Below, one piece after another: positions 1-35,602 of a stretch of DNA of 40,602 nucleotides; the stretch's first letter is position 1, and every line of letters begins with the position of its first letter. The stretch lies in IMG/VR virus record IMGVR_UViG_2541047755_000009. One strand, given 5' to 3'. Below the pieces are notes generated by a model. That model had not been told where the DNA came from. It did not search any database and saw nothing but the letters and a program-made list of their open reading frames with translations. Source of the DNA: a virus (lineage: Duplodnaviria > Heunggongvirae > Uroviricota > Caudoviricetes). The translations under genes and the position numbers were made by a program.

Positions 1-516
1 ATGAAATTTAAAAAATGTCTTCTGCCTGTGGCAACGTTAGCGTCATTCACTCTGGCAGGATGCCAGTCAAATGCTGATGATCATGCCGCCGATGTTTATC
101 AAACCGATCAACTGAATACCAAACAAGAAACTAAAACCGTTAATATTATTTCCATTCTTCCCGCAAAAGTTGCCGTAGACAACTCCCAAAATAAACGAAA
201 CGCACAAGCCTTCGGCGCGCTTATTGGTGCAGTCGCTGGCGGTGTTATTGGCCACAACGTCGGGTCTGGCAGCAATTCCGGAACGACGGCAGGTGCAGTT
301 GGCGGCGGAGCTGTTGGCGCGGCAGCGGGTTCTATGGTGAATGATAAAACCTTAGTGGAAGGTGTTTCTTTAACGTATAAGGAAGGCACCAAAGTGTATA
401 CCTCCACCCAGGTGGGTAAAGAGTGCCAGTTTACGACAGGTTTAGCCGTTGTTATTACCACGACGTATAACGAAACGCGTATTCAGCCAAATACGAAATG
501 TCCTGAAAAGAGCTAA
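1..516 (+). CDS. lipoprotein with glycine-zipper (SlyB-like) region; probable chromosomal flank
   Basis: ATG at position 1; signal peptide ending in lipobox LAGC; Gly/Ala-rich zipper stretch GALIGAVAGGVIGH; next gene follows 16 nt later. Confidence 0.7.
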   Translation: MKFKKCLLPVATLASFTLAGCQSNADDHAADVYQTDQLNTKQETKTVNIISILPAKVAVDNSQNKRNAQAFGALIGAVAGGVIGHNVGSGSNSGTTAGAVGGGAVGAAAGSMVNDKTLVEGVSLTYKEGTKVYTSTQVGKECQFTTGLAVVITTTYNETRIQPNTKCPEKS

Positions 517-531
517 TGATCAGGAGGAGTC

Positions 532-1071
532 ATGAAGAAAGTTTTTCTTTGCGCCATCTTAGCCTCCTTAAGCTATCCGGCTATCGCCTCATCATTGCAG
601 GATCAACTCTCTGCTGTCGCAGAAGCGGAACAGCAAGGTAAAAATGAAGAGCAAAGGCAGCATGACGAATGGATCGCGGAGCGCAACAGGGAAATCCAGC
701 AAGAGAAGCAACGTCGCGCAAACGCCCAGGCCGCCGCTAACAAAAGAGCGGCAACGGCAGCGGCAAATAAGAAAGCTCGTCAGGATAAACTGGATGCCGA
801 AGCCACTGCGGACAAAAAACGCGATCAAAGTTATGAAGATGAGCTACGCAGCTTAGAGATTCAGAAACAAAAACTGGCGCTGGCGAAAGAAGAAGCCCGC
901 GTTAAGCGCGAAAACGAATTTATCGATCAGGAACTGAAGCACAAAGCTGCGCAAACCGATGTGGTGCAATCTGAAGCTGACGCAAACAGGAATATGACTG
1001 AGGGCGGTCGCGATCTGATGAAAAGCGTGGGCAAAGCAGAAGAGAACAAATCGGACAGCTGGTTTAACTAA
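532..1071 (+). CDS. secreted Lys/Glu/Gln/Ala-rich coiled-coil protein (hypothetical)
   Basis: AGGAGG-type RBS upstream; N-terminal signal peptide; intrinsic terminator downstream. Confidence 0.6.
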   Translation: MKKVFLCAILASLSYPAIASSLQDQLSAVAEAEQQGKNEEQRQHDEWIAERNREIQQEKQRRANAQAAANKRAATAAANKKARQDKLDAEATADKKRDQSYEDELRSLEIQKQKLALAKEEARVKRENEFIDQELKHKAAQTDVVQSEADANRNMTEGGRDLMKSVGKAEENKSDSWFN

Positions 1072-1118
1072 GCGATGTCAGTAACTTCAAGCCTATGATT
1101 CGTGAGTATAATAAATAT

Positions 1119-1142
1119 CCTCCGGCATAGCCGGAGGTTTTT
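1119..1142 (+). terminator. rho-independent terminator of the 532-1071 gene
   Basis: stem CCTCCGGC / GCCGGAGG with loop ATA followed by TTTTT. Confidence 0.7.
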
Positions 1143-1149
1143 CAAATGC

Positions 1150-1862
1150 GCCTATAAGGCTCTCTTACCAGCCGCGCCCTAACAGGCGCACACGATCTGA
1201 CATTTGCATCCAACTTCGTTACTTACGGCCCGTAAACGGGCTGCCCGGATAGGGAATCGATAACTGCTCTCCCATTTTATCCTCTTCAAGCTGGTGCTTT
1301 ATGTAATCCTGTATCTTCGCCGTGTTCTTACCCACTGTATCGACGTAGTACCCTCTGCACCAGAACTCCCTGTTCCTGTATTTGAATTTCAAATCACCAA
1401 ACTGCTCGTAAAGCATCAGACTGCTTTTCCCTTTCAGATATCCCATAAACCCGGATACGCTCATTTTAGGCGGGATCTCCACAAGCATATGGATATGATC
1501 TGCACAGCATTCAGCTTCCAGAATCCGTACGCTTTTCCACTCACACAGCTTTCTCAAAATACTGCCTATTGCTCTACGCTTCTCTCTGTAGAACACCTGT
1601 CTTCGGTATTTTGGCGCAAAAACTATGTGATATTTACAGTTCCATCGGGTGTGCGCTAAGCTCTTTTCGTTCCCCATTGGGACCCCCTTTTGATTTCTTG
1701 TTTGACACTTGCAGTTGCCAGACCGCAAGGTGTTTTAACAAATCAAAAGGGGTTTTAATAACTGGCTCAAAGCTGAAAGCTTTCCGGAACCCCCAGCCTA
1801 GCTGGGGGTTTTCTGTGCACAAAAAACCCTCTGTAGTAACAGAGGGTTTTGTTCATTCATAG
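1150..1862 (-). mobile_element. IS200 (IS200/IS605 family) insertion sequence; ends approximate
   Basis: tnpA with IS200 hallmark; terminator-like hairpin AAAACCCTCTG..CAGAGGGTTTT plus T-run near 1822-1850 on the tnpA strand; RBS-sequestering inverted repeat CCCCTTTTGATTT / AAATCAAAAGGGGG just 5' of the tnpA ATG; about 0.7 kb overall. Confidence 0.7.
1219..1677 (-). CDS. tnpA: IS200 transposase TnpA (Y1/HUH transposase)
   Basis: MGNEKSLAHTRWNCKYHIVFAPKYRR... is the IS200 TnpA N-terminus; HxH motif (HIHML); about 152 aa from the internal ATG at 1677. Confidence 0.9.
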   Translation of the reverse strand: MGNEKSLAHTRWNCKYHIVFAPKYRRQVFYREKRRAIGSILRKLCEWKSVRILEAECCADHIHMLVEIPPKMSVSGFMGYLKGKSSLMLYEQFGDLKFKYRNREFWCRGYYVDTVGKNTAKIQDYIKHQLEEDKMGEQLSIPYPGSPFTGRK

Positions 1863-1999
1863 TGCAGGGTCAAATCATTCCCACTCAATTATTTACGATA
1901 ACCATAACCAATTGAGTGATAACATTTTTCCAAATCTCAATTTTTATCGTACCGTTTTATATACCGTCACCGGAAATCAGTACCATGAAAAATGCCATG

Positions 2000-2482
2000 C
2001 TATCTGGTCAGGGTGTCGTACTGTTTTTCACAGACTCTTCCGGCTTCGGCTGCCCGGTCAGCATACTCTGCCAGTTGTCTGTTTCTCTCGAGAGATTTAC
2101 TGAGCACGTCGGCAAGCAAAACTCCGGTGTCTGCGGCTGACGTCCCAGCGCCGACAATGGCGTTATACTGCCTGAGCTGCTCACGGATGGCAACGAGCTG
2201 TTGCTGCAACCGGCCAGCGCGAGCGGCAGCATCAAGAGCATCATTGCGCGCCTGGTCGATCCTCTGCTGCGCTTCACGTTCATTGATCGCTTTCTCCTGT
2301 TCGTAGTGCTGACGAATTCTCTCATCTTCGGTTTTGCGGTCTTCTTTCGCCTGCGCATACCCGGCGTCGTACTGACGACTGCCGTGTACACTCCAGGCAA
2401 CAACTCCTGATATGACCAGAACAGCAAGCACCGCCATGATAATCAACTGTTTCCGGTATGCTTTTACGAATGCCCAGATCAT
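2000..2482 (-). CDS. Rz: i-spanin Rz
   Basis: N-terminal TM helix then Gln/Ala/Arg-rich coiled coil; ATG overlaps the endolysin stop (ATGA); last gene of lysis cassette. Confidence 0.8.
2008..2244 (-). CDS. Rz1: o-spanin Rz1 lipoprotein embedded in the +1 frame of Rz
   Basis: alternate frame inside Rz encodes [13 protein letters not shown] (lipobox LAGC) followed by a Pro/Ser-rich peptide; start codon chosen by eye. Confidence 0.65.
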   Translation of the reverse strand: MMLLMLPLALAGCSNSSLPSVSSSGSITPLSALGRQPQTPEFCLPTCSVNLSRETDNWQSMLTGQPKPEESVKNSTTP

Positions 2483-3108
2483 ACCGCCAGCACCTTACTG
2501 GCATTGATGTATCGCGCGCGCCGGTCGTCGATGCCGTTCCGGCCACCATTGATAATCAGAGTTACACGTGCAATATCGCCGGTATACTTCATGCATCCTT
2601 TGCTGGCAAAGAACCACGCCGCGCTACGAGCCGCGTATTCGTCCTGCGCCAGCAGTTCAGGACTCTCCAGCAGGTCAACCTTAAGACCGTTTCCACAGTC
2701 ACGATAGTTATTCAAACCGGTAACCTGGATAAGCCCGCGCCCACGGTAGTTCCAGCCATCACCAGGGGCATTGTTCCCCATGCGTTTGCTGTACACCAGA
2801 TTGGCAATCGCTCTCTGGCGCTCAAGTGGCAATGGTGGTTCGCCTGCACGTCGCCCCAATGCGTTGGCCTGTCCCTGAGTGAGACGCCCAGCCCGAACAA
2901 AGTTAGCCAGTCCGCTGACGCTGTAGTTGAAATTCTCCTGCAACCGGGTGAAGCCTCCAGACTCATGCCCGACCTGAGCAATAAACATAGCCTGATCTTC
3001 TGGTTTGCTGATACCAAACTCTTTCATCGCAGAAGTTATATGCGAGAACCAGCGTGCGGCCAGTGCCTCGCTGATACCAGCAGCTCGCTGGAATTGTTTA
3101 ATCTCCAT
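2479..3108 (-). CDS. endolysin, glycoside hydrolase family 19 (chitinase-like)
   Basis: GH19 signatures [10 protein letters not shown] and [15 protein letters not shown]; GAGG RBS 8 nt upstream; no N-terminal TM segment so not a SAR endolysin. Confidence 0.85.
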
Positions 3109-3406
3109 GTTTAGACCTCGATACTTTGAAAATTTGAACGACGTTACCGCGCGTTTTAATAACCGCAGCTAGCATGACAGCGTTGATAATGACCTCAGAT
3201 AAATCCACAGCCATTGGCGTACGTAACCAGATTGCATAGGCGACACGAACAGGAATACTGGCCGCAGCAACAATCAGGAAATAAGCAAGCCATCCTCCCC
3301 ACCTTCGGTGTTGAGAGCCGTTACGCCGGAATGTGACAACGCGAATTGCTATGCCAGTGCAAATAACTGCATTGGTGATAAGCAAAAAAAACTCATGCGT
3401 TACCAT
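3098..3406 (-). CDS. lysis-cassette membrane protein (holin or antiholin candidate)
   Basis: 102 aa with about 3 hydrophobic helices; GGGGAGAAAAG RBS; overlaps both the upstream gene end and the endolysin start. Confidence 0.6.
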
Positions 3407-3797
3407 CGTCTTTTCTCCCCGGAATTAACTCGCGTGGATTATCGGAACGGTGATAGAGCCATATACCAATACGCACAGCGACAATTGCTGACACGAATGC
3501 GCCTGCAGAGAAAACAATCCCTTTTTCAAAAGAGTCCTGCGTGATGGTAGGGATCAGGCTGGCTATGCCGATAAGAATTGATGCTGCTGGTTTGTAAAAG
3601 AGAAGGCCGCAAAGAAAGCTGAGCATCGACAGGAGCACCCGGCGACGGATGGGGTACTCTACTGCAGAGGTAACAAAAATTACCGCTCCAGCCAAAGCAC
3701 CCAAAGCAACCTCAGGAGGAACTCCTGCTATCACCGCCGCCAGAGAACTCATGCTAAGCCACTGATTTAAAGTTTCACTGGTTAGTTGAGCTGACAT
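3393..3797 (-). CDS. multi-TM membrane protein (holin candidate)
   Basis: about 134 aa from ATG at 3797 with GGTGGA RBS (track ORF begins at GTG 3806); about 4 predicted TM helices; immediately upstream of the lysis genes. Confidence 0.55.
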   Translation of the reverse strand: MSAQLTSETLNQWLSMSSLAAVIAGVPPEVALGALAGAVIFVTSAVEYPIRRRVLLSMLSFLCGLLFYKPAASILIGIASLIPTITQDSFEKGIVFSAGAFVSAIVAVRIGIWLYHRSDNPRELIPGRKDDGNA

Positions 3798-3999
3798 GTT
3801 TTCCACCGTTTATATGCATAACAACCTCCTGAACAGTAAAGCATTACGCATAATAAACCATTTATGGTTTTTTGTTACTTTAACATCGTCAATTCCCTGT
3901 TTTTCATGCCGAGAATAAAGCTCACCTTTTACATGACTCTGAAGAAACAAACAGTGAAGAGCAGGTTGAATACCGCACCATTTAATGGCGCGGTAGCAG

Positions 4000-4296
4000 T
4001 CAAATAGAGAAATAAACACAAAAACAAAAAACAACAGGAACAGCAAAATCCAACAGACTTCCCACATCCCACACGCGTGGATCAAAACCTCCCCACCACG
4101 GCATGTTGATACGTTTCCCTTTCCCAAACTTTTCTATCCAGCGATATTCTGCCTGGGTGTGTTCACGCGCAATGAAGAACGTACAACCGGCTATCGCACC
4201 GTAAGCCCAGTTTCCGGTAAAAATACCAACCAGTACCTGAGCCACAAAAGCGCAAAGCGAGTGAAGAAATGGAGTGACATCAATGCTCTTAATCAT
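4000..4296 (-). CDS. small membrane protein translationally coupled to the tailspike (function unknown)
   Basis: ATG overlaps the tailspike stop (tcATGA); GGGGAAG RBS; 98 aa with 2-3 hydrophobic helices; AT-rich. Confidence 0.55.
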   Translation of the reverse strand: MIKSIDVTPFLHSLCAFVAQVLVGIFTGNWAYGAIAGCTFFIAREHTQAEYRWIEKFGKGKRINMPWWGGFDPRVWDVGSLLDFAVPVVFCFCVYFSI

Positions 4297-6482
4297 GAAA
4301 CTTCCCCATTGGTTGAAAATATGGCTCCTCCAACGCCAAGTGTATTTCGTGTTGTGCTCAACCTCAGAGGGCTGGAGTCAGAATTAGAATATCCTGTAGC
4401 AGAAATAAAAGATCCTCCACTAATAGTCAACTGCGGAACATCGGCTATATCTGAATAAGTTCTGTCAGCAACAGTATTATTTATAGCCACATATGATCCA
4501 AAAAAACTTCTTATTGTTTGGTTTTTAACTTTACTTCCTTCAATGGTTATCCTACTACCACAGTCGGCAATAAATCCTGAATCTGCATCCAGCGTTGCAT
4601 TCATAAAAGAAGCTTCAGATCTCTCTACATCAATCCATCTAATATCTTTTGTGGGATTTGCACCAAATACATGACAAATATTAGAGTTAAACCTTACACC
4701 ATCTTGGAGGTGCATTAATTTTTTTATATCTGTACCCCATAGCCTTGGAAAATTAACAGATGCTCCTGCATGGCAATCAAATCCCAGCTCAGCCCCTGAG
4801 ATATCTACAGCCTTTCCTGAAATAACAGCACCAGTGTCTGCATTAACGGCTGTTCCACAATTGCGCATATCATTACCAGCAACATCAACGCAACCCGCAC
4901 CATCAATACGCACACCAAGTGCACATCCATAAAAACCTTTTTCAATATTTGGTTCAAGGACTTTACCACTTGTTTCTGCATCACTTTCTTCAACGTCATG
5001 TCGTCTTGCATCAACATATGCTGTATGAATGCAGGTTAATCCACGATATGAGCAATGTATAGTTTTATGGTCGCGTATATTAACATTTGAACCATCTCTT
5101 ACATTCCATCCTATATAACAATAGCTTGCACTTGACCCCTGAAAATCTGCTTTAACATTATAAATACAATTAACTGACGCAACCGTACTCTCTGTGCACC
5201 GTTCAAACTTGCTTACAGGCATTGATGCCTTGACATTATTTACCAGTTGCAGGGAAGAGTATCTGCTATAAGAAAAATCACATACGTAATACCCTTCTGG
5301 CATATATGCAGCAACACTTTCCTCATCAGGAGCACATCCGGTATGATATGCACTAATTTTTGCACCAAAACTACCATGAATTCCAACGTAGAACTTTCGA
5401 GCACCTGAATACGGATAGAAATTAAGTTCAGCTTTTTGAGTTACAATAAATGCACAAACATCGCTATCATCTCTATTTTCTTCGATCTGAATAGCAAATA
5501 CAGGACTTTTTGCTGCATCGCAAATGTAAAATAAATACTTGTATTCGTAATACGTTCTAACGATTTTAGTAAACAAACGAGTGTCAGAGAAAACCACTGA
5601 GTCTTCTGATGTTATTTTAATCCAAGACAAATCAACACCTGAACTGAATTCAATTTGATAGTTGATAATATGCCCGGTCTTAATTCTTATTTCGCAGAAA
5701 GCATTACCACCATCCCACATAGGTCTCATTGACTGGGCTGCAATGATTGCATCTTTGAGTGTAGGGTAATCACCCCATTCGCCAACAGTAATAACAAAAG
5801 TATAATATGAGTTAAAAACAGCGGCATTTTTGCCTTTGGATATCAACTCCTTAATCATAAAAATATTATCTTCGTAATCACAAGGAGAAATTATATCCCT
5901 CATTTTGCTTTGAAATGTTCGTTGTCTTGCCCCGCTTCCTGACGGTATAAACCAACCAAAACCACCAACAACCCCGGCGATTGCAGCATCGACATAATTA
6001 CGCATTGAGCGATTATTTACAGCGTCCTGCTCAAATGATGGATCTGCAAGGTTAGAAATTTTGTTTTGCTTTGCATCGTAATATTTTGCAAGCAAAGATG
6101 GTTTCATCAATGCACGTCTGAACCACCCAAAACATCGCTGGATCAGCATCGTCAGGTAGTCAAATGCATCTTCATGAACTTCGGGGAAAAATTTTCCCTG
6201 ATTGCGAAGATCAGTCTCCTGCACCACATCAAGCACACGCTCTATCGTAATTCGCCAGCCAGCAGCAAGCGGCGACGGGAGAACCACTTCACCGCCACTA
6301 TAAGTGCCCGCTCCAGTTACCTTATAACCGGTATCCAGAACCAATTCTGTTACGTTCCCGTTCAGGTCAGACACCTGAACAACCAGGTCGGTTTTTTTGA
6401 AAATACGGAAGGTATACGGAAATGATGTCGTAACGCCGTTACCGGTGTATTCGTTGTGGTCAACTTCGGTTGAGACCGTCAT
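4293..6482 (-). CDS. tailspike with epsilon15-gp20-like N-terminal particle-binding domain
   Basis: N-terminus MTVSTEVDHNEYTGNGVTTSFPYTFRIFKK...HEDAFDYLTMLIQ matches the conserved epsilon15-type tailspike head-binding module as I recall it; long Gly/Asn/Ser/Thr-rich C-terminal part typical of beta-helix receptor-binding domains. Confidence 0.8.
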   Translation of the reverse strand: MTVSTEVDHNEYTGNGVTTSFPYTFRIFKKTDLVVQVSDLNGNVTELVLDTGYKVTGAGTYSGGEVVLPSPLAAGWRITIERVLDVVQETDLRNQGKFFPEVHEDAFDYLTMLIQRCFGWFRRALMKPSLLAKYYDAKQNKISNLADPSFEQDAVNNRSMRNYVDAAIAGVVGGFGWFIPSGSGARQRTFQSKMRDIISPCDYEDNIFMIKELISKGKNAAVFNSYYTFVITVGEWGDYPTLKDAIIAAQSMRPMWDGGNAFCEIRIKTGHIINYQIEFSSGVDLSWIKITSEDSVVFSDTRLFTKIVRTYYEYKYLFYICDAAKSPVFAIQIEENRDDSDVCAFIVTQKAELNFYPYSGARKFYVGIHGSFGAKISAYHTGCAPDEESVAAYMPEGYYVCDFSYSRYSSLQLVNNVKASMPVSKFERCTESTVASVNCIYNVKADFQGSSASYCYIGWNVRDGSNVNIRDHKTIHCSYRGLTCIHTAYVDARRHDVEESDAETSGKVLEPNIEKGFYGCALGVRIDGAGCVDVAGNDMRNCGTAVNADTGAVISGKAVDISGAELGFDCHAGASVNFPRLWGTDIKKLMHLQDGVRFNSNICHVFGANPTKDIRWIDVERSEASFMNATLDADSGFIADCGSRITIEGSKVKNQTIRSFFGSYVAINNTVADRTYSDIADVPQLTISGGSFISATGYSNSDSSPLRLSTTRNTLGVGGAIFSTNGEVS

Positions 6483-6585
6483 GTTAAATCTCCAGATAGT
6501 CGCAGCACCCGTTGCGCCGCATATCTGGTTATTCTATTACCTGTAAAACCACATATGGATAGAAAGACTGTAAATACGAATAGAT

Positions 6586-6602
6586 ATTACCTTTCAGGTA
6601 AT
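6586..6602. promoter_or_regulatory. operator-like palindrome ATTACC-TTTCA-GGTAAT (site A)
   Basis: perfect 6+5+6 inverted repeat abutting a TTGCAA -35-like hexamer upstream of the 6678 gene. Confidence 0.55.
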
Positions 6603-6640
6603 TTGCAAAACGTGCTGGATAGCAAACAAATTATTTGATA

Positions 6641-6656
6641 CTGTATAAATATACAG
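6641..6656. promoter_or_regulatory. LexA (SOS) box
   Basis: taCTGTataaatatACAGtt, i.e. CTGT-N8-ACAG with AT-rich spacer, near-perfect to the enterobacterial LexA consensus; about 20 nt upstream of the GGAGAAG RBS / ATG at 6678. Confidence 0.8.
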
Positions 6657-6677
6657 TTATTGCATGGAGAAGATAAG

Positions 6678-6935
6678 ATGCAGCAGTATCACTATCCACT
6701 GGAAGACGGATTTACCGAAAGGATTCACACGCCGGGAGGCGTCAGGTCACTGGTGGAGGGATCGCACTTGATGAAATTACTCCGGGATCTCGATAAGGAT
6801 GGATTTAATGTCGATGGCCCACTTGCCGAACTGACTGCACTGATTAACTACGTCACCAGCTCACAGATGTCTATGCGGGATCTGCAAACACATCTCGACT
6901 ATTGTGCCGAACAATTACGAAAACAAACCAGATAA
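6678..6935 (+). CDS. small antirepressor-like protein (stand-alone copy of the Bro-N protein C-terminal domain)
   Basis: 85 aa; RBS GGAGAAG; about 75 aa align with the C-terminus of the 7249-7935 product (LMKLLRDLDKDGFNVDGPLAELT...RDLQTH versus LLMNLLNQLQEDGHDVSGAAAELT...RDIQTH). Confidence 0.65.
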   Translation: MQQYHYPLEDGFTERIHTPGGVRSLVEGSHLMKLLRDLDKDGFNVDGPLAELTALINYVTSSQMSMRDLQTHLDYCAEQLRKQTR

Positions 6936-6965
6936 GGTTTGCAATTGCCAAGTGGAGTGCTTATA

Positions 6966-6982
6966 TTTACCTTTGCGGTAAA
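6966..6982. promoter_or_regulatory. operator-like palindrome TTTACC-TTTGC-GGTAAA (site I) inside a GGAGTGC / GCACTCC hairpin
   Basis: same half-site family; sits in the 310-nt untranslated gap between the two antirepressor-like genes. Confidence 0.45.
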
Positions 6983-7248
6983 TTTACATCGCACTCCTCT
7001 TGTGCCATAGTAATCGGGCACTGGCAAAATCCAGTGCCGGGATTGGCGTCCCGAGTTACTACAGAGGCACATATGCCGCATAAGCGGTTTTTTTTATGTG
7101 TAAAGCGCACCTATTCTATGGTGGGCTGTGTGGGGGCACCGAAAGGTGCGCCGGGTCCTTTGTAGCCGGTTACGCCAACCCTGCACAGTTCACCACCAAC
7201 CGATTGGCGTCGGTAGTGGTGATTAACCTAACTACAAAGGTGATCACT

Positions 7249-7935
7249 ATGACTGCTAACGTAACCCCATCTGTTTTTCATTTTGAATCAGAAGCAACCA
7301 TTCGAGCCATTGTTATTGATGGAAATCCTTGGTTTGTTGCCAAAGACGTTATTAAAGCTCTTCAACTGACAAACCCCACTATGTCAATAAAATCTCTTGA
7401 TGATGATGAAAGGGCTAAATTTAACTTAGGCCGTCAAGGCGAAACCAATATTATCAACGAGTCAGGCCTCTACACACTGATCCTCCGCTGCCGCGATGCA
7501 GTAACACCAGGCACTATCCCCTACCGCTTTCGCAAATGGGTTACAGGTGAGGTTCTTCCTCAGATCCGCCGCACCGGAAGTTACATTAAAAACTCGCTCC
7601 CGCAGGAAGAACGCATAAAGATGGTTGCCGACCAGGTTGCAAACGCCACAGCATCAGCAGTGATGCAGGCAATGAAGATAGAGAACAAAACCTACAGCGC
7701 CCCACTGAAGCCCGGCTACCGCAGCCTGATTCATTCGCCGTCTGGTGTTCTCGGCCTGACGGAGAACTCACTGCTGATGAATTTGCTGAACCAGTTACAG
7801 GAAGACGGGCATGACGTATCGGGCGCGGCGGCGGAGCTGACTACCATGTTCTGCTACATCGTCGGTGTGAGCAAATGCCTGCGTGATATCCAGACGCACG
7901 CGGAGTACATCAACGACAAGGCAGGGTTCTTCTGA
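7249..7935 (+). CDS. phage antirepressor with Bro-N domain
   Basis: Bro-N signature IRAIVIDGNPWFVAKDVIKALQL; AAGGTGA RBS before ATG 7249; C-terminal domain shared with the 6678 gene. Confidence 0.8.
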   Translation: MTANVTPSVFHFESEATIRAIVIDGNPWFVAKDVIKALQLTNPTMSIKSLDDDERAKFNLGRQGETNIINESGLYTLILRCRDAVTPGTIPYRFRKWVTGEVLPQIRRTGSYIKNSLPQEERIKMVADQVANATASAVMQAMKIENKTYSAPLKPGYRSLIHSPSGVLGLTENSLLMNLLNQLQEDGHDVSGAAAELTTMFCYIVGVSKCLRDIQTHAEYINDKAGFF

Positions 7936-7946
7936 CAGAACGGCGG

Positions 7947-7972
7947 CACAGGGATGTGCCTTTAAATAATTC
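7947..7972 (+). terminator. terminator-like hairpin after the Bro-N gene
   Basis: GGCACA-GGGA-TGTGCC followed by TTTAAATAATT. Confidence 0.45.
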
Positions 7973-8007
7973 TGTACAGATTGCAGACCGGGGGTGAATA
8001 GCGTACT

Positions 8008-8024
8008 ATTACCTTAAAGGTAAA
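8008..8024. promoter_or_regulatory. operator-like palindrome ATTACC-TTAAA-GGTAAA (site B) with promoter-like TTGCAG / TACTAT hexamers
   Basis: sits between a putative -10 and the GAGGAGG RBS of the 8050 gene. Confidence 0.5.
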
Positions 8025-8049
8025 CCATGTGTTTACATGAGGAGGAGAT

Positions 8050-8259
8050 ATGGGATTTTGGTTCGCTCGTACAAAAACGAGGGATAATGCACCCAGCCCT
8101 CAGGCAAAAAATGCAGAAGTTCCGGCGTCAGCGCAGGTTAACAAGCGTGGTGGTGTGTATATCTCATCACAGCAAATTTCTGAGCTTCCTGAGGTTAAGG
8201 AGATGCGTCGTCTCGCTGCTGCAATCGTTAAACAGGATCTTGCCACTGTAAGGAAATAG
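8050..8259 (+). CDS. hypothetical small hydrophilic protein, first gene of accessory cassette
   Basis: strong RBS GAGGAGG then ATG; 69 aa; stop TAG overlaps the GTG start of the next gene (taGTG). Confidence 0.6.
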   Translation: MGFWFARTKTRDNAPSPQAKNAEVPASAQVNKRGGVYISSQQISELPEVKEMRRLAAAIVKQDLATVRK

Positions 8260-9125
8260 TGTTGTTAGCTCTTCTAATTATCCCCATTCTGGTTAGTGGT
8301 TATATTATGATAACCGCTAACCAGTATCATTATTTCCGTTTATACCGACATGAAGGCCAGCTTCTTTATATGAAAGTAGCTGCATTAGGTACATATTGCC
8401 TTGTTGCTTCGGTAATAATTGCCGCATTTATAAAATATAAATATCCTGATTTTCACCTAGTTCACGATATGGTGGAAACTTTTAATGTAACGTCAAAACC
8501 AGAAACAGATAGAATTTACATGTGGCTGCTTCTTCTCTCAGCCACATCCATTTGCTTCTCTTTGTGTTATGTGTCTGTTGTGTGGGTGAAAGATTTTCTT
8601 CTTGGTTGTTTTTATAAACGTGATATTTATGAGCAAAAAACAGAGGCAATGAAGGCCAGAGTACTGCGAAAAACTTACTCGCAAGGTTCTTTAGACTTAC
8701 TATTGCTTGATGCTATTGAATCGGATCCTAAACGACCAATGCTGATTACTTTATCATCAAACAAAGTGTATGTTGGAATAATAAATGGTTCTGGTGAACC
8801 AACGGAAAATCAGGGTCCGCATCAGCACATATCTTTTGTTCCTTTAATGTCAGGATACAGGAACAAAGACAACTTATCTGTCACATTCACTAATGCTTAT
8901 CCAGGAGAAATACAGGTCAAGCGGACTGCAGCAATAAGAGGAATTAGCAGAAAGAAAGTGCCAGGACTTGAGATCATGGTGTCTATTGACGAAATAAGTT
9001 ATATATCATGGTTTGATTTTGAAGTATATAAAGCAACAAATAACAAAGTAGAATCCAGGGGGCACGTTATTCGTGTTACCAAAAATGGAAGAAATATATA
9101 TCAAAGAAATAGCAAAAAAGAATAG
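8259..9125 (+). CDS. membrane-anchored protein, 3 N-terminal TM helices plus about 180-aa soluble domain (unknown function; exclusion/defense candidate)
   Basis: 288 aa; GTG start coupled to upstream stop; visibly AT-rich codon usage unlike the neighbouring phage genes; intrinsic terminator directly downstream. Confidence 0.65.
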   Translation: MLLALLIIPILVSGYIMITANQYHYFRLYRHEGQLLYMKVAALGTYCLVASVIIAAFIKYKYPDFHLVHDMVETFNVTSKPETDRIYMWLLLLSATSICFSLCYVSVVWVKDFLLGCFYKRDIYEQKTEAMKARVLRKTYSQGSLDLLLLDAIESDPKRPMLITLSSNKVYVGIINGSGEPTENQGPHQHISFVPLMSGYRNKDNLSVTFTNAYPGEIQVKRTAAIRGISRKKVPGLEIMVSIDEISYISWFDFEVYKATNNKVESRGHVIRVTKNGRNIYQRNSKKE

Positions 9126-9146
9126 CCCGCGCTGCGGGCTTTTTTG
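9125..9146 (+). terminator. rho-independent terminator of the accessory cassette
   Basis: GCCCGC-gct-GCGGGC followed by TTTTTTG. Confidence 0.7.
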
Positions 9147-9217: not shown

Positions 9218-9379
9218 ATGAAAAAAGCATTTGCTGCACTGTTCGTTTTGTTGTCTCTGGTAGCTTCAACTCAGGCCTTTGCCGGTCGTTGTCAGCACGA
9301 CAGCGATACTGCCGCTGACGGCTCCCGCTGCGGTGGGCGTTCTGCGGATTCCCGCCCGGGTGGCGGTGGCATTCGTTAA
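9218..9379 (+). CDS. small secreted Cys-containing peptide (hypothetical)
   Basis: MKKAFAALFVLLSLVASTQAFA signal peptide then about 30 aa Gly/Arg/Asp-rich; start chosen at the internal ATG of track ORF 9146-9379. Confidence 0.35.
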   Translation: MKKAFAALFVLLSLVASTQAFAGRCQHDSDTAADGSRCGGRSADSRPGGGGIR

Positions 9380-9402: not shown

Positions 9403-9414
9403 GTGACATGTCAC
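9403..9414. repeat. 12-bp perfect palindrome GTGACATGTCAC, copy 1 of 3
   Basis: identical 12-mer also at 26972-26983 and 29237-29248. Confidence 0.8.
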
Positions 9415-9707
9415 GTCCCTTTTCTGAATGATAGCCATTCGAAAAATGATGACATTCCACCGCAGACAATAGCAAAGATGATCCCACCAAAGAAGAGAAG
9501 GCCAGCCTGCCACCACTCCCACCGCCATACATCCACAGCGCCAACCATACCAACAATCGCTCCAACAAATGGAATATAGCTCACGATGAAAGCAATGGGG
9601 GCTGCAATTATCCAGTGCAATCCCCACCATGATTCAAGCCCAGCCATAATTGCTGCCAACTGAAAAAGACCAACGACGATATAAACAATGAATCCTATAG
9701 CTTGCAT
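9411..9707 (-). CDS. Trp-rich small membrane protein (about 3 TM helices), function unknown
   Basis: 98 aa; ATG start; last gene of the minus-strand operon before the terminator. Confidence 0.55.
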   Translation of the reverse strand: MQAIGFIVYIVVGLFQLAAIMAGLESWWGLHWIIAAPIAFIVSYIPFVGAIVGMVGAVDVWRWEWWQAGLLFFGGIIFAIVCGGMSSFFEWLSFRKGT

Positions 9708-9719
9708 GTAGTCACCTAT

Positions 9720-9893
9720 TTACCCAGTAAAAATAAGAGGCCTCCCCTCAATAAGGCTTGCAACAAGAACTACTCCCTGCACAACAAAGATGAACCAGCA
9801 AATAGCTTGAGTCTGAGGGTTAAGAAAATATTTGTAGCGGTCAATAAATAACAATACACCAGAAATTATCACACTCAAAATAATTAAAAACAC
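9720..9893 (-). CDS. possible 57-aa hydrophobic peptide (GTG start)
   Basis: not in ORF track; AAGGAAG motif 4 nt before GTG; two hydrophobic segments; directly precedes the 9411-9707 gene. Confidence 0.3.
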   Translation of the reverse strand: MFLIILSVIISGVLLFIDRYKYFLNPQTQAICWFIFVVQGVVLVASLIEGRPLIFTG

Positions 9894-25970: not shown

Positions 25971-25987
25971 ATTACCTTTAAGGTAAC
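25971..25987. promoter_or_regulatory. operator-like palindrome ATTACC-TTTAA-GGTAAC (site C) next to a TTGACA hexamer
   Basis: same family as the immunity-region operators; lies between the late operon and the tRNA leader. Confidence 0.5.
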
Positions 25988-26315: not shown

Positions 26316-26392
26316 GTGGCATTAGCTCAGTTGGACAGAGCAACCGCCTTCTAAGCGGTTGGTCGCAGGTTCGAATCCTGCATGCCACGCCA
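26316..26392 (+). tRNA. tRNA-Arg, anticodon UCU (reads AGA)
   Basis: 77 nt cloverleaf: acceptor GTGGCAT / ATGCCAC, D-stem GCTC / GAGC with A20, anticodon stem ACCGC / GCGGT, loop CTTCTAA, T-arm GCAGG-TTCGAAT-CCTGC, G73, encoded CCA. Confidence 0.9.
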
Positions 26393-26595: not shown

Positions 26596-26967
26596 ATGAG
26601 TGACAAAGACATTGAATCTGAAATTCAGGCTAAAGGTTTAGCCGCGCCGCGCGTTACGCCAGACCATATCGAGAGCATTATTGCTCAGGAGGCATATTTC
26701 ACAGCAGAAGATGGTGTCTTTGGCGTAGCCATAAAAGCGAAACATACTGGCGGAGAGGTAAACTACCAGCCGCACGAATCACTTTCTCTGCTGACATTCT
26801 GCGTTCTGGTGCTGCGCAACGGCTTCACCGTCACCGGAGAGAGCGCCTGTGCAAGCCCGGAAAACTTTGATGCGGAAATTGGTCGGAAGATTGCCCGGCA
26901 GAATGCTGTAAACAAAATCTGGATGCTTGAAGGTTACTTGCTGAAGCAGAAGTTAAGCGAGCAATAA
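26596..26967 (+). CDS. conserved phage protein, tentatively Gp49 / Sf6-gene-66-like
   Basis: 123 aa; AAGGTGAG RBS; family assignment from memory only. Confidence 0.4.
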   Translation: MSDKDIESEIQAKGLAAPRVTPDHIESIIAQEAYFTAEDGVFGVAIKAKHTGGEVNYQPHESLSLLTFCVLVLRNGFTVTGESACASPENFDAEIGRKIARQNAVNKIWMLEGYLLKQKLSEQ

Positions 26968-34497: not shown

Positions 34498-34728
34498 TCA
34501 TGAGTAGAAGAAGTATGCCAGTTCTGCTTTTGAGCGCAGCCATTGTCTTGTTTTACAGGCTTTAAAAAGCCCATTCATCAATACTTTACCTGGCATTTTG
34601 CGCTTACCTGTTAAGTGAGTCTGGATATAGTGACTCGTCGTTCCGGCTTCCTGTGCGAAGGCTTCACGCTCATCCGGAGTAAGTGCAAGCCAGTGCTTTT
34701 TGAAATCGAAATGTCCGTTATCGCTCAT
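34498..34728 (-). CDS. Cro-like HTH regulator
   Basis: 76 aa; first gene of the rightward early operon, divergent from the repressor; HTH-like segment AFAQEAGTTSHYIQTHLTGKRKM. Confidence 0.55.
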   Translation of the reverse strand: MSDNGHFDFKKHWLALTPDEREAFAQEAGTTSHYIQTHLTGKRKMPGKVLMNGLFKACKTRQWLRSKAELAYFFYS

Positions 34729-34763: not shown

Positions 34764-34828
34764 TTCACCCATAAGGTAACAAAAATCAAGGATAGTTACC
34801 TATGAGGTGCATTTACCTGTTGGGTAAT
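34764..34828. promoter_or_regulatory. immunity-region operators (three sites) with divergent promoters
   Basis: TTCACC-CATAA-GGTAAC, GTTACC-TATGA-GGTGC and TTTACC-TGTTG-GGTAAT within the 154-nt gap; on the cro strand a TTGTTA-N17-TATTAT promoter-like pair overlaps the first site. Confidence 0.65.
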
Positions 34829-34882: not shown

Positions 34883-35467
34883 ATGAAAAGTATCCAGGAC
34901 GTCCGCAGGCAAAATCTCAACGACTTGATCGACCGTGAATTCAATGGTGTTCAGACGCGGATGGCAGAAAAACTTGGAACTCAGGCAAATCTGGTAAACC
35001 GCTGGGCTCTTGGCAAGAAGGTTATCGGCGACCAGGTTGCACGAAAAATTGAAGCTGCCGCCAATAAACCCCGTAACTGGCTTGATATTGATCGCTCGCT
35101 TTCTCAGGAGGGTTTTCAGCCTGTCGGCCCGAGCGATATAGGTCAGCTGGCGGCTCACAACCTGGAACGCTGGATGAGCGAAAGCCGCGACCTTTCAACG
35201 CAGGGAAAACTACACCGCGCATCCGGCGTCGCCCAGGTGACAATCAGCCGCCTGTTAAACAATGAGGTCAGCGTTTCCATTTCCACCCTGGAGAATGTTG
35301 CATCCGCATTCGGGCGTCACGGCTATGAATTACTGATTCACCCGCACGACCCTGCGACCATCAACTATGATCGCTCGCGCTACGCATTGTTACCCGAAAC
35401 CGAGAAAGCAAAGATCGAAAGTTACATTGAATTTGTCATCAACCAGAACGAAAAAAACAAACAATAA
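34883..35467 (+). CDS. prophage repressor, dual HTH, no S24 peptidase domain
   Basis: XRE-type HTH QTRMAEKLGTQANLVNRWALGKK plus a second HTH-like segment; no Ser/Lys autocleavage module at 194 aa; divergent from the Cro-like gene across the operator cluster. Confidence 0.7.
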   Translation: MKSIQDVRRQNLNDLIDREFNGVQTRMAEKLGTQANLVNRWALGKKVIGDQVARKIEAAANKPRNWLDIDRSLSQEGFQPVGPSDIGQLAAHNLERWMSESRDLSTQGKLHRASGVAQVTISRLLNNEVSVSISTLENVASAFGRHGYELLIHPHDPATINYDRSRYALLPETEKAKIESYIEFVINQNEKNKQ

Positions 35468-35523: not shown

Positions 35524-35602
35524 ATTACCTAATGGGTAATTTTTTTAACTCATATCTATTGACATCAAACCAGATACGCATAATTATTACCTCAACGGTA
35601 AC
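35524..35602 (+). promoter_or_regulatory. promoter for the plus-strand early operon bracketed by two operators
   Basis: ATTACC-TAATG-GGTAAT (perfect), TTGACA -35, TAATTA -10-like hexamer about 16-17 nt later, then ATTACC-TCAAC-GGTAAC. Confidence 0.6.

Follow-up and report, generated by a model that had tools for sequence, protein, structure and literature searches.

A mobile two-gene cassette with a predicted membrane-tethered Sm-like protein in the cargo slot of an ε15-like Escherichia coli prophage, a candidate exclusion or defence module

The DNA analysed here, IMG/VR virus record IMGVR_UViG_2541047755_000009 (40,602 nucleotides (nt) in full, hereafter the window), is an ε15/phiV10-like (Uetakevirus-type) prophage of Escherichia coli adjoining yfgI. 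It carries a cassette of two genes, coding for a small protein of 69 amino acids (aa) and a large protein of 288 aa with three predicted transmembrane (TM) helices and a predicted Sm-like domain. By sequence comparison, the pair was recognized as a self-contained, horizontally mobile unit spread over the Proteobacteria in phages, on plasmids, and in chromosomal islets. The genomic contexts suggest an exclusion or defence function, which is tentatively preferred here at somewhat less than an even chance, and each step of a possible mechanism is less probable than that.

Homologs of the large protein are numerous. An exhaustive profile search at E ≤ 1e-3 collected 2,339 representatives (50% identity), 903 of them with E ≤ 1e-10, while a word-indexed search gave 28 clusters. 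Most of the representatives are full-length (250–300 aa), and those with named sources, from Yersinia, Pantoea, Shewanella, Bowmanella, and Marinomonas, are all labelled "hypothetical". The family of the small partner comprises 108 clusters in the word-indexed search, all unannotated or plainly mislabelled. Distant loci were scanned in one genome per species, which yielded 59 loci from Gamma-, Beta-, and Alphaproteobacteria. A small open reading frame (ORF) stands directly 5' of the large gene in 55 of the 59, and 41 of these ORFs match the partner profile at E < 0.05. In the loci examined individually, the small ORF was always directly 5' and on the same strand, and the intergenic gap in closer homologs is −1 to +16 nt. 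The coherent two-gene unit proposed in the initial annotation, which had been made from the window sequence alone, is thus found again in distant genomes. No gene family accompanies the pair regularly: the ±2-gene neighbours of 40 de-duplicated loci comprise 147 proteins and 173 Pfam families, none of which recurs more than four times, so the pair appears to be self-contained and to need no third gene.

The same linkage was seen in the set of 5,426 complete E. coli genomes, of which 28 have the large gene and 30 the small one. The large gene was never met without the small one, and all E. coli copies of the pair lie in prophages of the ε15-like type adjoining yfgI. The two genomes with the small gene only hold a DUF2335 gene instead. 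The small gene of strain 4/4 has an R-to-C change in its conserved core, and from its sequence it looks like a remnant of a cargo swap. The small gene was also considered as a separable part of the phage backbone, as its G+C content of about 0.48 and the DUF2335 arrangement might suggest; this was rejected, because homologs of it go with the large gene in all lineages and the DUF2335 arrangement occurs in only two genomes.

A search for the pair in other prophages and defence islands, as proposed in the initial annotation, located it in five contexts, in part beside known defence genes. The first is the tailspike-proximal accessory region of ε15-like podophages of E. coli, Providencia, and Proteus. 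In P22-like phages, the variable "ant moron" holds immI and sieA (PMC2629481), and the window region is equivalent to it, which bears out the earlier statement that the cassette occupies a position like the exclusion and immunity-I site of P22. The second context is the P2-like gpA-gpQ locus in Salmonella phages SEN4 and SEN5 and in Klebsiella phage ST15-OXA48phi14.1, where the homologs are distant. This locus is known as "moron position 1" (PMC3573123) and as an experimentally validated hotspot of anti-phage systems (PMC9122126). The gene following the pair in ST15-OXA48phi14.1 is bSEFIR (E 7e-103). A third component was considered in this TIR/SEFIR gene, but it stands alone at the same hotspot in phage 500465-1 and represents the known single-gene system bSEFIR, and it is regarded as a neighbour only. 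The third context is the integrase-attachment junction of lambdoid prophages, found in Cronobacter phage phiES15, Citrobacter, and Klebsiella pneumoniae. The fourth is represented by 28 plasmid records, of which 19 are predicted to be conjugative and 26 come from Salmonella; in the one IncC plasmid inspected, the pair lies within accessory DNA. Small chromosomal islets are the fifth context, for example in Serratia, where the pair with AlpA and Abi_alpha genes lies between housekeeping genes.

Further defence genes were found next to the pair. In Citrobacter youngae, IetS and IetA (E 9e-272 and 6e-132) come immediately after it, and in a Nitrosomonas metagenome-assembled genome the S and R subunits of a type I restriction-modification system are directly 5' of it. 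PADLOC matches among the ±2-gene neighbours include a CBASS cyclase, NucC, TRIP13, AbiLi, MADS components, and GajA-like proteins, as raw occurrences. As a separate observation, locus L113 of K. pneumoniae has at 1–7514 a second integrase island (SMC_N/AAA_23, MComp1, and CTD1) and a CBASS-like SMODS/AGS_C gene within 8 kb of the pair, adjoining the end of the prophage on which the pair is carried, and this attachment region looks like a stacked hotspot.

In the window, the cassette has the BRO-N antirepressor gene on one side and the ejection-protein genes on the other, as the initial annotation had placed it. It is the present occupant of a cargo slot situated between the BRO antirepressor gene and a gene for a 53-aa membrane protein, and alignment with related phages defines a conserved promoter-plus-operator as the left border of this slot and a conserved terminator as the right border. 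Related ε15/phiV10-like phages with other cargo match the window up to about position 8025 and again from about 9115. The slot holds a small gene and a YafO-family toxin gene in TL-2011b, two small genes in phiv142-3, and DUF2335 cargo in strain 4/4, where the cargo ends at the same terminator. The pair is therefore present in some but not all close phages at one locus, as is typical of a moron. A weak promoter with operator and a terminator flank it, but they are common to every cargo type. Of the promoter-like hexamers that had been assigned to the cassette, the existence stood and the ownership did not: they are conserved around other cargo, match only seven of 12 consensus positions by count, and are absent from the output of the consensus promoter scan. 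The same applies to the clean intrinsic terminator, a G+C-rich hairpin at 9124–9140 followed by a T-run, which is real but is found also 3' of other cargo. Whatever the function of the pair, the ε15-like slot with its conserved promoter-plus-operator and terminator is a clear example of accessory-gene swapping.

The base composition distinguishes the large gene from its host phage. Its G+C content is 0.361 (0.294 at third codon positions) compared with 0.49 for the whole window, so the AT-richness earlier attributed to the entire cassette holds for the large gene but not for the small one (0.481); the nearby tailspike gene is as AT-rich as the large gene. The G+C content of the large gene is below that of its flanks in 48 of the 59 distant loci, with a median difference of −7 points, and this, together with the other cargo in the slot of sister phages, upholds the suggestion of separate acquisition. 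The features of the slot and the pair are listed in Table 1.

Table 1. Positions of the features recognized at the cargo slot, and of further operator-type sites, in the window.
Feature	Position	Strand	Remarks
Hairpin GGCACA-GGGA-TGTGCC	7945..7960	+	Just 3' of the BRO stop codon; part of the left border of the slot; invariant in 7/7 cargo variants
Weak sigma-70-like promoter TTGCAG-17-TACTAT	7982..8010	+	Sequence reading; slot-owned; conserved in phages with other cargo
Operator-type palindrome TACCTTAAAGGTA	8010..8022	.	Perfect copy abutting a −10-like hexamer; kept in all cargo variants apart from occasional single changes
Left cargo junction	8023..8027	.	Homology with TL-2011b and phiv142-3 stops
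Shine-Dalgarno sequence GAGGAGG of the small gene	8036..8042	+	Sequence reading; 5 nt before ATG 8050
Small partner gene	8050..8259	+	69 aa, net basic; phrog_5739 match; homologous partners 5' of the large gene
Shine-Dalgarno sequence AAGGA and TAGTG stop/start overlap	8246..8262	+	Sequence reading; alternative start TTG at 8262
Large gene	8259..9125	+	288 aa, GTG start; three TM helices, linker helices, Sm-like beta-barrel, C-terminal extension (predicted)
Conserved RNA hairpin	8289..8324	+	Codons 11–22 of the large gene; 15-bp stem, 12-bp conserved core; flagged by scan
Region encoding the predicted Sm/LSm-like domain	8691..8921	+	About residues 145–221 of the large protein
Right cargo junction	9115..9117	.	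Homology with phages with other cargo restarts
Intrinsic terminator AGCCCGCGCTGCGGGCT then TTTTTTG	9124..9146	+	Terminator scan; slot-owned; scores on the minus strand too
TACC-N5-GGTA sites, 13 nt each	6588, 6968, 8010, 25973, 29145, 32421, 32483, 34429, 34814, 35526, 35588	.	Motif search of the window

Both ORFs were confirmed in the ORF list at the positions first assigned to them, 8050–8259 and 8259–9125. The strong ribosome-binding site GAGGAGG, which lies 5 nt 5' of the ATG of the small gene, and the GTG start of the large gene on the stop codon of the small gene are as initially described. AAGGA lies just 5' of this GTG, and the overlap suggests that the two genes are translationally coupled. 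In some genomes, the NCBI annotation pipeline PGAP begins the large gene at the internal ATG 8370 (251 aa; e.g., L003 8370–9125, K_EC180), which deletes the first TM helix, and skips the small gene, so automated surveys will overlook the pair. The upstream start, GTG 8259 or TTG 8262, is considered correct because the N-terminal motif LL(I/L)IPILVSGY is invariant even in homologs at 33–37% identity. The ratio of nonsynonymous to synonymous substitution rates (dN/dS) is 0.02–0.08 for the small gene and 0.05–0.09 for the large one, in which the β-domain has about 0.01. Such strong purifying selection on both ORFs indicates real coding genes. A 74-aa overlapping ORF in another frame (8027–8251) was found only in near-identical relatives and is not considered a gene. 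In the comparison with the copy of strain FDAARGOS_1257 (window 8050–8400 versus L004 8070–8420), the synonymous divergence dS stays at 0 through the small gene and as far as codon 45 of the large gene and then rises to 0.2–1.1. This jump points to a recombination junction within the large gene, whose C-terminal two-thirds were swapped separately.

The large protein has hydrophobic segments at about residues 1–22, 35–60, and 86–116 according to hydropathy. Positively versus negatively charged residues (K+R versus D+E) number 2/1 in loop 1, 4/5 in loop 2, and 8/4 after the third helix, and this bias favours an N-out/C-in topology with a cytoplasmic C-terminal domain. The three N-terminal TM helices and the soluble domain with no catalytic motif are in accordance with the initial annotation; the domain has about 170 aa and no Pfam match. 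An AlphaFold2 model built from a 22-sequence alignment (mean predicted local distance difference test score, pLDDT, 72.9) consists of long helices at residues 2–117, two linker helices at 127–154, and a β-rich domain from residue 161. As in the Sm fold, the predicted domain begins with a helix, and a five-stranded β-sheet with a strong bend comes after it, with K169, Y171, G173, P181, E183, P195, S198, G199, R201, and Y214 invariant.

Searches of databases assigned no function to this protein. Pfam, with LSM and Hfq included, gave no match to the window protein at E ≤ 1 and none to any of 84 family members at E ≤ 0.01, and the WYL profile (PF13280) did not match either. The family has no match in NCBIfam, searches of PDB sequences with single proteins and profiles gave no match, and Foldseek found nothing when the predicted structure was compared with viral structures. 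The PHROG matches are phrog_3630 and phrog_23864, both of unknown function. In PADLOC-DB v2.0.0, neither window protein has a match at E ≤ 1, and the 84 family members gave a single marginal one (AbiEii, E 0.0094). No description of the family or of a membrane-tethered Sm-like architecture was found in the searchable literature by accession, PHROG identifier, or architecture. The designation "uncharacterised" is therefore appropriate, and the structure and profile comparisons proposed for the 288-aa protein revealed no clear homology to a known structural or housekeeping protein.

The overall plan of the large protein resembles that of the mechanosensitive channel MscS, which has about 286 aa, three TM helices in N-out/C-in orientation, and a cytoplasmic Sm-like β domain forming a ring. 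No relationship was detected: hhalign gave a probability of 0.1% against E. coli MscS, there was no Pfam MS_channel match, and the third TM helix and β domain gave no structural match.

As a predicted inner-membrane protein encoded near a tailspike gene, the large protein could also be a lysogenic-conversion factor which alters the envelope or host physiology (surface polysaccharide, fitness) and has no direct action on an incoming phage. Conversion genes near the tailspike gene are known in ε15-like and P22-like phages, an Acyl_transf_3 gene adjoins the tailspike gene of a Proteus relative, and in phiV10 an O-acetyltransferase homolog stands at the known moron position (PMC3573123). But the pair has no glycosyltransferase- or acyltransferase-like domain, its conserved domain is a predicted cytoplasmic Sm-like barrel, and its spread over unrelated hosts with unrelated surface chemistries suggests a generic target. 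Conversion is therefore considered very improbable.

The small protein, which is basic and soluble, has a disordered N-terminus and a core predicted as a beta-hairpin and two helices (AlphaFold2 core pLDDT 85–92), with the motif RG-G-V-Y-I-S...ELPEVKEM..A..IV. The family-wide partner consensus is an N-terminal helix, RVVGRGT(V/I)xIDPxEV, and a helix ...EFKxAxxxAKxIV. The matching phrog_5739 is of unknown function. The protein has no recognisable DNA-binding fold of antitoxins (SpoVT/AbrB, ribbon-helix-helix, or helix-turn-helix), with hhalign probabilities of 0.8% for AbrB and 0.2% for MazE and no match to the antitoxin families of Pfam.

A conserved RNA hairpin with a folding z-score of −5.4 begins 30 nt into the large gene and pairs the V-S-G-Y codons with the (I/V)-x-A-N codons. 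Its 12-bp core is retained in homologs down to about 45% protein identity, and 88% of cells are paired in a set of 17 distinct sequences. Compensatory changes affect two pairs (UA 10, CG 5, and AU 1; CG 7, UA 4, and UG 4), and among the codons involved Ala is GCT in 17 of 17 sequences and Ser is always AGY. Covariation of this extent was reached by two of 500 shuffles, and slid controls were far lower. An RNA-level feature is favoured over a DNA palindrome because of the G·U pairs; since both arms code for conserved residues, the support is moderate. No Rfam family matched the hairpin. The scan flagged it as terminator-like, and a role as attenuator or terminator was rejected as the downstream U-rich tail is poor and unconserved. 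The hairpin may limit synthesis of the membrane protein.

These properties also bring to mind an addiction or toxin-antitoxin-like module, in which a toxic large protein is neutralised by the small one and the carrier element is stabilised, with no dedicated anti-phage role. A tightly linked small upstream gene is present here: it comes first, is apparently coupled to the large gene, and accompanies it in 28 of 28 E. coli genomes, while two genomes without the large gene retain it, the copy of strain 4/4 with the change in its conserved core. The pair is also carried by conjugative plasmids, a YafO-family toxin pair occupies the same slot in TL-2011b, and the early hairpin in the large gene could hold the level of a toxin low. 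Against this stand the comparisons of the small protein with AbrB and MazE (hhalign probabilities below 1%) and with Pfam antitoxins, which gave no relationship. Toxin-antitoxin and abortive-infection roles can moreover coexist, and this explanation, which we regard as unlikely, overlaps partially with the preferred one of exclusion or defence.

The regulation of the slot is connected with that of the phage. The sequence TACC-N5-GGTA occurs in the window at 11 sites against 0.58 expected, with a maximum of three in shuffled sequences, and its strict palindrome form has 11 strand matches against 0.41 expected; for the cassette palindrome taken alone, a comparable one was obtained in 7.5% of shuffles of the same intergenic stretch. 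Every strict site is directly 3' of a −10-like hexamer, and a promoter recovered by the scan with 10 of 12 consensus positions (TTGACA-17-AATTAT, 35559–35587) ends exactly where the palindrome at 35588 starts. Site 34814, with near-copies recognized by eye at 34767 and 34798, lies between a divergent Cro-like gene (34498–34728) and a gene for a 194-aa helix-turn-helix (CI-like) protein, and sites 35526 and 35588 lie after the CI-like gene (34883–35467) and ahead of the rightward recombination genes. These sites of the immunity region are thus in O_R-like and O_L-like positions. Several accessory units on the plus strand likewise have sites in front of them. Among the other sites, one each stands ahead of a gene for a 91-aa protein (6588), of the BRO antirepressor gene (6968), of the cassette (8010), and of a unit of tRNA-Arg and a Gp49-family gene (25973).

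The TACC-N5-GGTA sites probably define the immunity regulon of the phage. The simplest reading, which we infer from their distribution, is that the slot promoter, the antirepressor, and the early promoters are all under the control of one DNA-binding protein of the immunity type. The initial annotation described an operator-like palindrome that would switch the cassette with the lytic programme, and the recurrence of the site, including its presence in the immunity region, fits that claim; as a property of the cassette itself, the palindrome did not hold, being conserved around other cargo. The pair would be off in a stable lysogen and on at entry or induction along with the antirepressor. The slot promoter shares its operator with the O_R- and O_L-like sites, so the cargo may be silent in a stable lysogen, and whatever the function of the present pair, the wiring of a cargo promoter to the immunity operator raises the question whether such cargo is expressed in lysogens. 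As a side observation, the operator-bearing promoter at 25973 (TAGACA-18-AATTAT, recognized by eye) faces a tRNA-Arg(tct) gene at 26316–26392 and an ORF at 26596–26967; a related prophage has a "Gp49 family protein" gene at the place equivalent to this ORF, and the whole is a further accessory unit, opposite the structural genes.

The perfect operator copy at the cassette promoter, shared with the O_R- and O_L-like sites and with the antirepressor gene, suggests repression in the lysogen and early co-expression. It would suit a role of the pair in the phage's own cycle at entry or induction, such as exclusion of secondary infection during lytic growth, lysis timing, membrane energisation, or host takeover, with no protection of the lysogen. 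Class I holins have three TM helices in N-out/C-in orientation. Hydropathy and charge bias predict the same topology for the large protein, and the lysis cassette is only a few kb away. The likeness ends there: compared with a holin of about 100 aa encoded in the lysis cassette, the large protein has 288 aa and a folded cytoplasmic domain of about 170 aa (predicted), is encoded outside that cassette, and matches no holin family of Pfam or PHROG. The pair is also dispensable, as sister phages hold other cargo in the slot, and at integrase-attachment junctions, at the P2 hotspot, on plasmids, and in non-phage islets by housekeeping genes a role in the phage cycle is implausible. A function confined to the phage's own cycle is therefore judged improbable.

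An exclusion or defence function, which we prefer tentatively, could be carried out by a device working at the inner membrane. Sm-like domains, such as those of Sm, LSm, and Hfq proteins, generally assemble into rings, with nucleic acids or small ligands as their binding partners. Barrels of the WYL/Sm-like type were proposed as ligand sensors of defence systems (PMC4012209), and TM proteins of known anti-phage systems are taken to be effectors that induce suicide of the cell on infection (PMC9122126). A ring-forming device at the inner membrane is proposed on the basis of these habits of Sm-like domains and of the TM effectors. The Sm-like domains would assemble the large protein into a ring and so bring its TM helices together in an assembly that is gated or perturbs the membrane. 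A pocket for a ligand, like that of Sm or WYL sensors, would be made up of the invariant K, Y, E, and SGYR residues; it would sense either a cue in the form of a nucleic acid or nucleotide or the small partner, and this partner would restrain or tune the large protein. Activation would then block DNA entry or collapse the membrane potential of the infected cell.

In its most far-reaching form, the proposal would be a new two-component anti-phage or exclusion system, in which a membrane-anchored Sm-like ring with an MscS-like layout of independent origin gates a three-TM pore on a nucleic-acid or nucleotide cue or on loss of the partner, the hairpin throttles the dangerous component, and a large unrecognised class of immune effectors is spread by phages, plasmids, and islets. 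This full version is doubtful and is given here as rather unlikely.

Several points weigh against an exclusion or defence function. Most chromosomal neighbours of the pair are ordinary housekeeping genes, and the position in the slot is by itself weakly informative on function, because the same slot elsewhere holds a YafO toxin pair or DUF2335 genes. If the prophage repressor binds the operator, the pair would be silent in the lysogen of this phage, unlike classical prophage-encoded defence. For the ring, the binding of a ligand, and the activity as a pore, the predicted fold is the only basis. Neither a structural match to the TM part of the large protein nor a fold of the small partner could be assigned, and the scans of Pfam, PHROG, PADLOC, and NCBIfam gave no sequence similarity to any known defence, exclusion, toxin-antitoxin, or channel family.

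Comparison with known systems reveals likenesses of position and layout. Similarly to SieA in the "ant moron" of P22, the large protein is a predicted inner-membrane protein encoded in an exchangeable, variable region between ejection-protein and tailspike genes with adjacent antirepressor genes. It differs in that the host phage is ε15-like, the unit has two genes and a cytoplasmic Sm-like domain (predicted), and the promoter has an immunity-type operator, whereas sieA acts in lysogens. PHROG and Pfam scans of the large protein matched no superinfection-exclusion family and no SieB, SieA being compared via these family scans only. The P2 gpA-gpQ cargo (old, tin, and the Rousset et al. 2022 systems) shares its locus with the homologs of the pair in SEN4, SEN5, and ST15-OXA48phi14.1, but the pair is homologous to none of the systems listed in PADLOC v2 and is not mentioned in the literature searched. 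RexAB and the TM effectors of CBASS, retrons, and Thoeris likewise combine a cytoplasmic component with a small multi-TM protein and are AT-rich and borne by prophages or islands. They have no sequence relationship to the pair, in which the putative sensor (Sm-like) and effector (TM) are fused and the partner, of about 65 aa, has no enzymatic domain. Unlike Sm/LSm/Hfq and WYL barrels, the predicted domain has no LSM, Hfq, or WYL match in Pfam and is tethered by three TM helices. The pair thus falls outside the Sie homologs, MscS, WYL, AbrB/MazE, the holin families, and the membership of PADLOC.

Accessory membrane-protein cargo in phage hotspots is a well-known category. If the exclusion or defence function is true, a widespread family which comprises at least 2,339 clusters (50% identity) and is covered by none of Pfam, NCBIfam, and PADLOC would join the bacterial immune repertoire, and its membrane-tethered Sm-like barrel would be an architecture new for defence. 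It could then affect the host range in phage therapy, as the family is common in hosts of clinical relevance (E. coli, K. pneumoniae, Salmonella IncC plasmids, Proteus, and Serratia).

Some further observations were made around the slot. The 51-nt region around the hairpin 7945–7960 has a folding z-score of −4.1. The high-affinity binding consensus of CsrA/RsmA is RUACARGGAUGU, and the loop and stem of this hairpin (CACAGGGATGTG) resemble it; in Rfam the sole match was a partial, non-significant one to RsmV (E 0.36). A module of about 85 aa, phrog_450, represents the entire 91-aa protein (6660–6935) and also the C-terminus of the BRO protein (7681–7935). A 258-bp stretch (7702–7959) was found inverted in TL-2011b and OkiPb01676 under their Ant/antirepressor genes (L001 4189–4445; L006 9798–10055). 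Such repeats flanking the slot could be drivers of cargo exchange or inversion.

Three further small ORFs are present between the cassette and the ejection-protein genes, at 9218–9379 (+), 9411–9707 (−), and 9720–9893 (−). The product of the first one (53 aa) matches phrog_14503, a "membrane associated protein" in the moron category, and the other two are hydrophobic by eye and uncharacterised. Some E. coli prophages have an extra gene for a 167-aa protein 3' of the pair (L004 9168–9671, strain FDAARGOS_1257; L006 9166–9669). The L004 protein has no match in the PADLOC scan and a sub-threshold match to the nucleoside 2-deoxyribosyltransferase-like family PF11071 (E 0.0037). This gene takes the place of the 5' portion of the 53-aa gene, and the annotation gives the latter as a pseudogene truncated at the N-terminus.

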